NCBI RefSeq assembly: GCF_003334765.1
Contig: NZ_QOWT01000002.1
Reading direction: 5' to 3' (one strand)
Origin: Escherichia coli
Lineage (GTDB): Bacteria > Pseudomonadota > Gammaproteobacteria > Enterobacterales > Enterobacteriaceae
Length of the DNA stretch: 64,000 nucleotides
Shown here in pieces: positions 42,801 through 43,000 of this stretch. Position 1 is the first letter of the stretch; each line of letters starts with the position of its first letter. The notes below the pieces were generated by a model that was not told the origin of the DNA, ran no database searches, and was given only the letters and a program-made list of their open reading frames with translations. The translations under genes and the position numbers were made by a program.

Positions 42801-43000
42801 TGTAGGCCAGATAAGACGCGTTAGTGTCTTATCTGGCATTTGCACCGATTGCCGGATGCGGCGTAAACGCCTTATCCGGCCTACGATTCCCATTATTTCA
42901 ACAAATTACATTAAAGTAGGCCAGATAAGACGCGTCAGCGTCGCATCTGGCATTTGCACTGAATGCCGGATGCGGCGTAAACGCCTTATCCGTCCTACGA
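42801..43000. repeat. BIME: two copies of a roughly 115-bp unit, each with an oppositely oriented REP pair
   Basis: gtaggccagataagacgcg...catctggc and gccggatgcggcgtaaacgccttatccg repeated from about 42801 and about 42916; the second copy overlaps the rcsC stop. Confidence 0.85.

Follow-up and report, generated by a model that had tools for sequence, protein, structure and literature searches.

The duplicated unit between the convergent genes rcsB and rcsC in this stretch of Escherichia coli DNA is REP162, an ordinary two-copy BIME-2 array of E. coli K-12 that is built from the most common palindromic repeat of the species and is already in the literature. We consider it very probable that this array was amplified in place, that Rho is what mainly stops RNA polymerase here and that the stable 3' ends of the transcripts lie at the Z hairpins of the array. 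Positions are given for the window, that is, the whole stretch of 64,000 nucleotides that was analysed, and equal the MG1655 coordinate minus 2,274,032. The gene names rcsB and rcsC were taken from the annotation of K-12 MG1655, to whose type of genome a 401-nt query was 100% identical. In the annotation of NC_000913.3 the rcsB/rcsC spacer bears no repeat_region feature; the name REP162 comes from the supplement of a preprint, where the element is labelled convergent and assigned to rcsB:rcsD:rcsC (bioRxiv 10.64898/2026.03.23.713779). No rcsB or rcsC entry was found in the available portion of the RepRanger supplement.

The spacer is filled by two direct copies of 98 nt each that a repeat search placed at 42802-42899 and 42916-43013, identical at 87 of 98 positions (89%) and at 90 of 114 across the whole period, with a start-to-start spacing of 114. 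Tandem Repeats Finder (TRF) returned a period of 114, 1.9 copies, 88% matches and a score of 347. The first-pass annotation had described two near-identical units of roughly 115 bp; the two copies are present, while the period is 114 and 'near-identical' is generous for 88-89%. It had also stated that the second unit runs into the last codons of rcsC (stop at 42995), and this holds, since 42916-43013 covers the stop and reaches 16 nt past it, over the last five codons K-S-R-D-S. As rcsC is a minus-strand gene its TAG stop appears as CTA at 42995-42997, and the minus strand around its end reads GAT TCG TAG GAC GGA. The features of the locus are collected in Table 1.

Table 1. Features of the rcsB/rcsC locus in the window, with folding energies (kcal/mol) of the single hairpins on either strand
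Feature	Position	Strand	Energy, plus strand	Energy, minus strand	Remark or source
rcsB coding sequence, stop TAA 42793-42795	42145..42795	+			100% match to MG1655; NC_000913.3 rcsB 2316177-2316827
Unit 1 Z2-type REP, GTAG foot, perfect 14-bp stem	42802..42837	+	-25.3	-20.3	stem starts 10 nt after rcsB stop
Unit 1 head-to-head (S-type) linker, 13 nt, ATTTGCACCGATT	42838..42850				aligned to inter-hairpin linker of Rfam naRNA4 model
Unit 1 Y-type REP, iREP orientation, CTAC foot	42851..42884	+	-21.3	-20.9	0 mismatches to Y consensus pattern
Tail-to-tail linker joining the units, 31 nt	42885..42915				42885-42899 apparently a decayed rcsC copy; 42900-42915 is AACAAATTACATTAAA
Unit 2 Z2-type REP, canonical 2-nt internal mismatch	42916..42951	+	-21.9	-21.4	Z pattern, Rfam alignment
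Unit 2 head-to-head linker, 13 nt, ATTTGCACTGAAT	42952..42964				sequence, repeat search
Unit 2 Y-type REP, CCTAC foot containing rcsC stop codon (weakest hairpin of four)	42965..42998	+	-14.8	-14.4	1 mismatch to Y pattern
rcsC coding sequence, 949 aa, ends ...RVRKSRDS*	42995..45844	-			ORF; MG1655 annotation; 42999-43013 within repeated unit
Best-scoring position, Rho termination region (rcsB read-through, antisense to rcsC)	43147 (2317179)	+			PMC7815308 supplementary file 2
Best-scoring position, weaker Rho region (rcsC read-through, antisense to rcsB)	42655 (2316687)	-			PMC7815308 supplementary file 2

REP pairs had been recognised at first pass, and each unit does consist of a Z2-type REP followed by a Y-type REP. 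A REP is defined as an imperfect palindrome of 30-40 nt with a conserved GTAG (or CTAC) at its foot (PMC3333891), and the four palindromes found here are 32-36 nt long with a GTAGG or CCTAC foot, the first of each unit opening with GTAGG and the second closing with CCTAC in the opposite orientation. The Y REPs were compared with the consensus GCCGGATGCGGCGTRAACGCCTTATCCGGCCTAC (mismatches in Table 1), and the Z pattern was matched with 0 mismatches. The Y-REP and Z-REP patterns gave 6 matches each in the 64-kb window against 0 expected from 100 shuffles, and the 401-nt query matched a median of 28 places per E. coli genome, the multiplicity that marks a REP. BIME-2 elements are defined by z2 and y REPs joined by a short S linker, by tandem copies and by a copy number that varies with the strain (PMC3333891). 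At this locus the Y REPs match their consensus, the Z2 REPs align to the second hairpin of naRNA4 and the linkers are 13 nt, while the copy number is two in K-12, one in Nissle and others, three in 14EC033 and four in MS 115-1. Assignment to BIME-1 or RIP-RIB elements (z1 and y in single copy, with a long conserved L linker holding an IHF site) was rejected, as the REPs are Z2 and tandem and the inter-unit linker is locus-specific and has only a one-mismatch match to the IHF consensus. Of the four REPs, three are wholly intergenic, and the one at 42965-42998 includes the rcsC stop together with 1 nt of the sense codon before it; REPs are reported to 'seldom overlap' coding regions (PMC12306157).

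Folding of the whole region was far more stable than that of shuffled sequences (z = -9.3 on the plus strand and -7.0 on the minus strand). Both units matched the Rfam family RF02564 (naRNA4) on the minus strand with 80.4 and 77.5 bits, above the gathering threshold of 59.5 and with both model hairpins aligned, and on the plus strand with 58.9 and 56.5 bits, just under that threshold.

Published 3'-end maps place transcript ends within the array. Two overlapping bidirectional termination regions from SEnd-seq fall here, namely #182 at 2316832-2316874 (window 42800-42842; log and stationary phase) and #183 at 2316942-2316985 (window 42910-42953; stationary phase) (bioRxiv 10.64898/2026.03.23.713779), and they coincide with the two Z hairpins, whose tabulated values of -25.3 and -21.9 were reproduced by our folding. 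In Term-seq data the minus strand has a strong 3' end at 2316833 (window 42801), which is present in two table sheets that we took as two growth conditions, and no plus-strand end was reported in the array (PMC7815308). The first-pass annotation had proposed that both genes of the Rcs pair end in one structured repeat, a claim that 3' ends of both transcripts lying outside the repeat would contradict; the SEnd-seq regions at both Z hairpins and the Term-seq end at 42801 bear it out.

The first 15 nt of the linker joining the units, 42885-42899 (GATTCCCATTATTTC), agree in 12 of 15 positions with the end of rcsC, which reads GATTCCCGCGATTTC in most strains, a match with a probability of ~1.2e-5 by chance. 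The inter-unit linker is locus-specific, occurring at one place per E. coli genome, and as it was found at the rcsB/rcsC locus only, a generic BIME flanking motif was rejected as the source of its likeness to the rcsC end. Because the linker matches the rcsC end and occurs nowhere else, the array appears, from its sequence, to have been amplified in place and to have carried a piece of the rcsC 3' end along. Simple head-to-tail duplication of a one-unit form was rejected as it leaves the 16 nt at 42900-42915 unexplained. These 16 nt read AACAAATTACATTAAA in K-12, AACAGATTACATTAAA in most strains and AATGGATTACAACAAA in divergent strains, and a predicted one-mismatch match to the IHF consensus (TTTCAACAAATTA, 42896-42908) reaches into them. 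At the repeat edge (42993-42998) the last residues of RcsC are polymorphic among loci L002-L011, being KSRDS* in K-12 (CGAATCC) and KSRES* in most others (CGATTCC); the rcsC relic of unit 1 has the GATT form.

Copy number was compared across strains, as had been suggested at first pass, and ranged from 1 to 4 units among 5,426 complete E. coli genomes. At least two units, recognised by presence of the inter-unit linker, were found in 4,437 of these genomes (82%). The linker was absent from ~989 genomes (~18%), and every example inspected had one unit and an 85-nt spacer, with rcsC still ending in a Y REP. The succession linker-unit-linker, which marks 3-4 units, occurred in ~32 genomes (~0.6%), such as 14EC033 with three units in a 313-nt spacer and MS 115-1 with four units in a 427-nt spacer (TRF 3.8 copies, four naRNA4 matches). 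An exact RcsB look-up gave only spacers with the two lengths known from E. coli, 199 or 85 nt. The one-unit forms of different strains are mosaics with different crossover points and some two-unit strains show inter-unit conversion, which together indicate repeated unequal recombination between units; since the crossover points differ, the one-unit forms seem to have arisen several times independently, by deletion from a form of two or more units. The Z hairpins had folding energies between -21 and -25 kcal/mol in each of the 17 E. coli haplotypes sampled, while the Y hairpin nearest to rcsC was seen to decay to about -6, a pattern that fits the mapping of the 3' ends at Z.

One locus of a divergent Escherichia genome (L012, 2253-2407; RcsC tail 96% identical) has a 154-nt spacer in which the locus-specific linker and unit 2 are intact, while only one hybrid hairpin, GCAGGCCAGATAAGTGCCGAATGCCTTATCTGGCCTAC, is left of unit 1 and looks like a Z/Y pair that has lost its interior. 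As this locus keeps the linker and unit 2, the arrangement of at least two units is old within Escherichia; the age of acquisition is bounded by this locus alone, Salmonella, E. albertii and E. fergusonii being absent among the 80 loci listed.

Most of the spacers inspected from other genera are 33-90 nt long and hold a bidirectional intrinsic terminator composed of an A-run, a GC hairpin and a T-run, for example AAAAAAGCCTGATGGCGTGACGCTCATCAGGCTTTTTTT in Citrobacter sp. FP75 and AAAAAAGGCCCTTCCGGGCCTTTTTT in Enterobacter. Such terminators were found at loci L013, L017, L018, L019, L020 and L027, which belong to Citrobacter, Enterobacter, Pluralibacter and Pseudocitrobacter. Enterobacter asburiae (L017) has a REP pair in addition to its intrinsic terminator and two Citrobacter species have REP-like pairs of their own in the spacer; an Rfam scan detected naRNA4 in 0 of 4 non-Escherichia loci (the two Citrobacter species, Citrobacter sp. 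FP75 and E. asburiae). In E. coli, 0 terminator-like sites (a hairpin followed by a T-run) were found on either strand of 42500-43300, and the Z hairpins are flanked by 3 U on the 3' side and 2-4 A on the 5' side. An intrinsic, Rho-independent terminator was thus rejected for this region, which has neither the U-run nor a hairpin with a T-run. Judged by comparison of these spacers, the repeat in E. coli occupies the place of the intrinsic terminator of other genera. The two share their position and presumably their job, one hairpin region ending both convergent transcripts, but the terminator of other Enterobacteriaceae is a single GC hairpin flanked by an A-run and a T-run, an element that REP162 lacks.

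The tail of RcsC was compared over 74 related loci from other Enterobacterales. Tails of the same kind (RVRKSRES* or RKTRES*) are present at three loci of other genera (Erwinia psidii, Pseudocitrobacter), and derivation of the RcsC C-terminus from the REP was rejected. The tail of Pseudocitrobacter L027 likewise ends in TCG-TAG and its spacer has no recognisable REP. As tails of this kind exist in other genera and the L027 spacer is free of REPs, the REP abuts an ancestral rcsC stop codon.

It may be argued that the array is neutral or selfish repeat DNA tolerated at convergent gene ends, with its 3' ends a passive by-product of no regulatory value to Rcs, a possibility that we regard as somewhat doubtful. 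The range of 1-4 units, the several independent unit losses and the inter-unit conversions are what such DNA would produce, as is the fall of the rcsC-proximal Y hairpin from -14.8 to about -6 kcal/mol in many strains; a RAYT/TnpA(REP) enzyme has been proposed to spread REPs, and no global effect of REPs on half-life was found, genes that end in REPs showing no difference when compared genome-wide (bioRxiv 10.64898/2026.03.23.713779). Against this stand the Z hairpins, strong in all sampled haplotypes, and the persistence of the element itself, as 5,383 of 5,426 genomes match at least 80% of the 401-nt query and no inspected E. coli genome is without it. Moreover, the E. coli spacer has no other terminator where most other genera inspected keep an intrinsic one, and convergent pairs that bear a REP, which number 207 of 704 (~30%) in E. 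coli, are more highly expressed (bioRxiv 10.64898/2026.03.23.713779). Given a copy number that varies from 1 to 4 and a Y hairpin that decays, selection on the precise architecture, if there is any, is weak.

Another reading takes the proximity of the stop codons as the functional point, the REPs stalling terminating ribosomes and so lowering the synthesis of RcsB and RcsC. Between the rcsB stop and the stem of the unit-1 Z REP there are 10 nt, and between the rcsC stop, which lies inside the foot of the unit-2 Y REP, and the stem of that REP there are 2 nt; REPs at most 15 nt away from a stop codon are reported to lower translation (PMC12306157 citing Liang et al. 2015). However, rcsC has beside it the least stable hairpin of the array, one that has decayed in most strains. 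We regard this reading as rather doubtful as the main function; it is compatible with, and not exclusive of, an array at which Rho stops the polymerase and the 3' ends lie at the Z hairpins.

The dependence on Rho emerges from published coverage data with and without bicyclomycin (BCM), a Rho inhibitor, analysed in windows of 800 nt (PMC7815308). On the plus strand, coverage around 2317179 went from 274 upstream to 14 downstream without BCM and from 246 to 276 with BCM (Rho score 22, p = 1e-49), i.e. coverage past the array was 5% of that upstream in the first case and 112% in the second. On the minus strand, coverage around 2316687 went from 101 to 34 without BCM and from 121 to 106 with BCM (Rho score 2.6, p = 5e-5). 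Both best-scoring positions (43147 on the plus strand, 42655 on the minus strand) fall outside the repeat, and as the windows span 800 nt they do not place the site of Rho action relative to the hairpins. These data show Rho to be required for termination in either direction.

This bears on the proposal that the array is an autonomous, Rho-independent bidirectional terminator acting through hairpin pausing and head-on collisions of polymerases, as modelled by Ju et al. and Wang et al. REP162 is on the SEnd-seq list of overlapping bidirectional terminators, with #182 flagged for convergent transcription, and in the description by the authors who defined that class it works without Rho, through collisions of polymerases (bioRxiv 10.1101/2022.10.23.513370). 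That description conflicts with the BCM result at REP162. With Rho inhibited the plus-strand signal downstream equals that upstream, and minus-strand read-through rises from 34% to 88%; besides, the hairpins have no U-tract. As transcription of rcsB crosses the array once Rho is blocked, autonomous termination is unlikely, and it is more likely that the hairpins of REP162 mark and protect 3' ends. The repeat probably defines processed or stabilised ends and not true termination points.

Very unlikely is a role at the level of DNA, in which the array would bind gyrase and be cleaved by it to relieve positive supercoils between the converging genes or would be a nucleoid-organising naRNA4/HU element: gyrase has been reported to target BIME-2 elements (Espeli and Boccard 1997) and both units match the model of naRNA4, a family whose members would be processed, nucleoid-associated RNAs that bind HU, but that role is disputed for REP325, which does not compact the nucleoid, REP-REP contacts being absent (bioRxiv 10.64898/2026.03.23.713779), and a fragment of the preprint's supplementary table that is labelled 'Novobiocin-Sensitive' (p = 0.17, odds ratio 1.27) may be read as showing no enrichment of REPs.

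The explanation that we favour, a BIME-2 array amplified in place at which Rho stops the polymerase and stable 3' ends form at the Z hairpins, would run as follows. Repeat DNA of the REP/RAYT system would have been amplified at this locus, each extra unit bringing a 15-nt copy of the rcsC 3' end, and recombination between units would have produced the forms with 1-4 units. Both convergent transcripts would enter the array and fold four stable hairpins, and Rho would be the main stop of RNA polymerase, in or just past the array. Stable ends at the feet of the Z hairpins may then arise by pausing and collision of polymerases or by 3'-to-5' exonuclease trimming. The trimming step is suggested by the action of REPs as stabilisers and by the way in which Rho-dependent 3' ends are processed. 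By its Term-seq end at 42801, the rcsC mRNA stops five bases short of the rcsB stop codon and carries the whole array as a 3' UTR of ~194 nt; the rcsB mRNAs would end at about 42842 or 42953. A REP hairpin stands no more than 15 nt from either stop (10 nt at rcsB, 2 nt at rcsC), so that translation termination may in addition be modestly damped. In experiments on REP325, that element was a partly Rho-dependent terminator and an mRNA stabiliser (2026 preprint, bioRxiv 10.64898/2026.03.23.713779).

The first-pass annotation had further suggested that the shared repeat could couple the 3'-end stability of the two Rcs mRNAs. Such coupling would not be specific to Rcs, as ~30% of convergent pairs bear a REP, and the idea is weakened because the copy number varies freely, the rcsC-proximal hairpin decays and no effect on half-life is seen genome-wide. 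In another reading, the number of units (1-4) would tune the Rcs phosphorelay of envelope stress and capsule differently in each lineage and so link the levels of RcsB and RcsC reciprocally. Each unit would lengthen the complementarity between the 3' UTRs of rcsB and rcsC, from about 45 to more than 150 nt, which could alter the formation of dsRNA, the access of Rho and the release of ribosomes at both stops. We hold this to be a far-fetched speculation; if copy number did affect Rcs output, it would provide cheap regulatory diversity between E. coli lineages.

REP162 resembles other BIME-2 arrays of E. coli (Gilson, Bachellier, Hofnung; Ton-Hoang et al. 2012) in its alternating Y and Z2 REPs with GTAG/CTAC feet, short head-to-head linker, tandem arrangement, strain-variable copy number and location at gene 3' ends. 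It differs from the usual BIME-2 in that its last REP is not strictly extragenic, the foot supplying the positions of the rcsC stop, and in that its tail-to-tail linker is locus-specific with a relic of the rcsC 3' end. A further difference lies in the Z REP of unit 1, which in K-12 is a perfect 14-bp palindrome (42802-42837) without the 2-nt internal mismatch of unit 2 (42916-42951); such a mismatch is reported to be necessary for TnpA(REP) binding, for the y REP. The Z REPs of both units are perfect in some strains, such as NC101, and mismatched in others. REP325 or naRNA4 (RF02564; yjdM-yjdN, six Y+Z2 units) has the same two-hairpin unit, which REP162 matches with 77-80 bits, but its flanking genes stand in tandem in one operon, while those of REP162 converge, so that REP162 is transcribed from both sides. 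Among the SEnd-seq bidirectional terminators (Ju et al. 2019) REP162 is listed twice (#182 and #183), and it shares with that class an overlap of 43-44 nt between convergent transcripts around a hairpin without A and U tracts; it departs from the class in its Rho dependence, as indicated by the BCM data.

A second array of the same type was seen elsewhere in the window, at 30481-31033. It is a five-unit BIME-2 array with a period of 113, 95% matches and five naRNA4 matches on the plus strand, placed between eco and mqo by the coordinate offset, and the REP in that spacer is named REP161 in the published table, where its listed bidirectional-terminator hairpin (2305063-2305108) starts at the last bases of the array. 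REP161 is like REP162 a BIME-2 between convergent genes on the list of bidirectional terminators, but it has linkers of 20 and 23 nt and more copies (five units). Further matches to the Y-type REP were found on the minus strand at 10167-10200 and 17346-17379 (3 and 1 mismatches), and other Rfam matches were the MicF sRNA at 39051-39144 (114 bits, upstream of rcsD), a tRNA at 13491-13564 and the L25 ribosomal-protein leader at 9750-9775.

Earlier work had already described the element, its family and its RNA model and had listed it as a two-way 3'-end element, and with REP162 named, the family in Rfam and the two-way use of its 3' ends tabulated, the locus carries little weight as a discovery. 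New, though modest, are the count of copy number, the rcsC relic in the linker and the contrast with the intrinsic terminators of other genera. The locus offers an example of a mobile palindromic repeat standing where most other genera inspected carry a classical bidirectional terminator, of a REP foot that coincides with a stop codon, and of a BIME that appears to have been amplified in place, taking along a fragment of the neighbouring gene.
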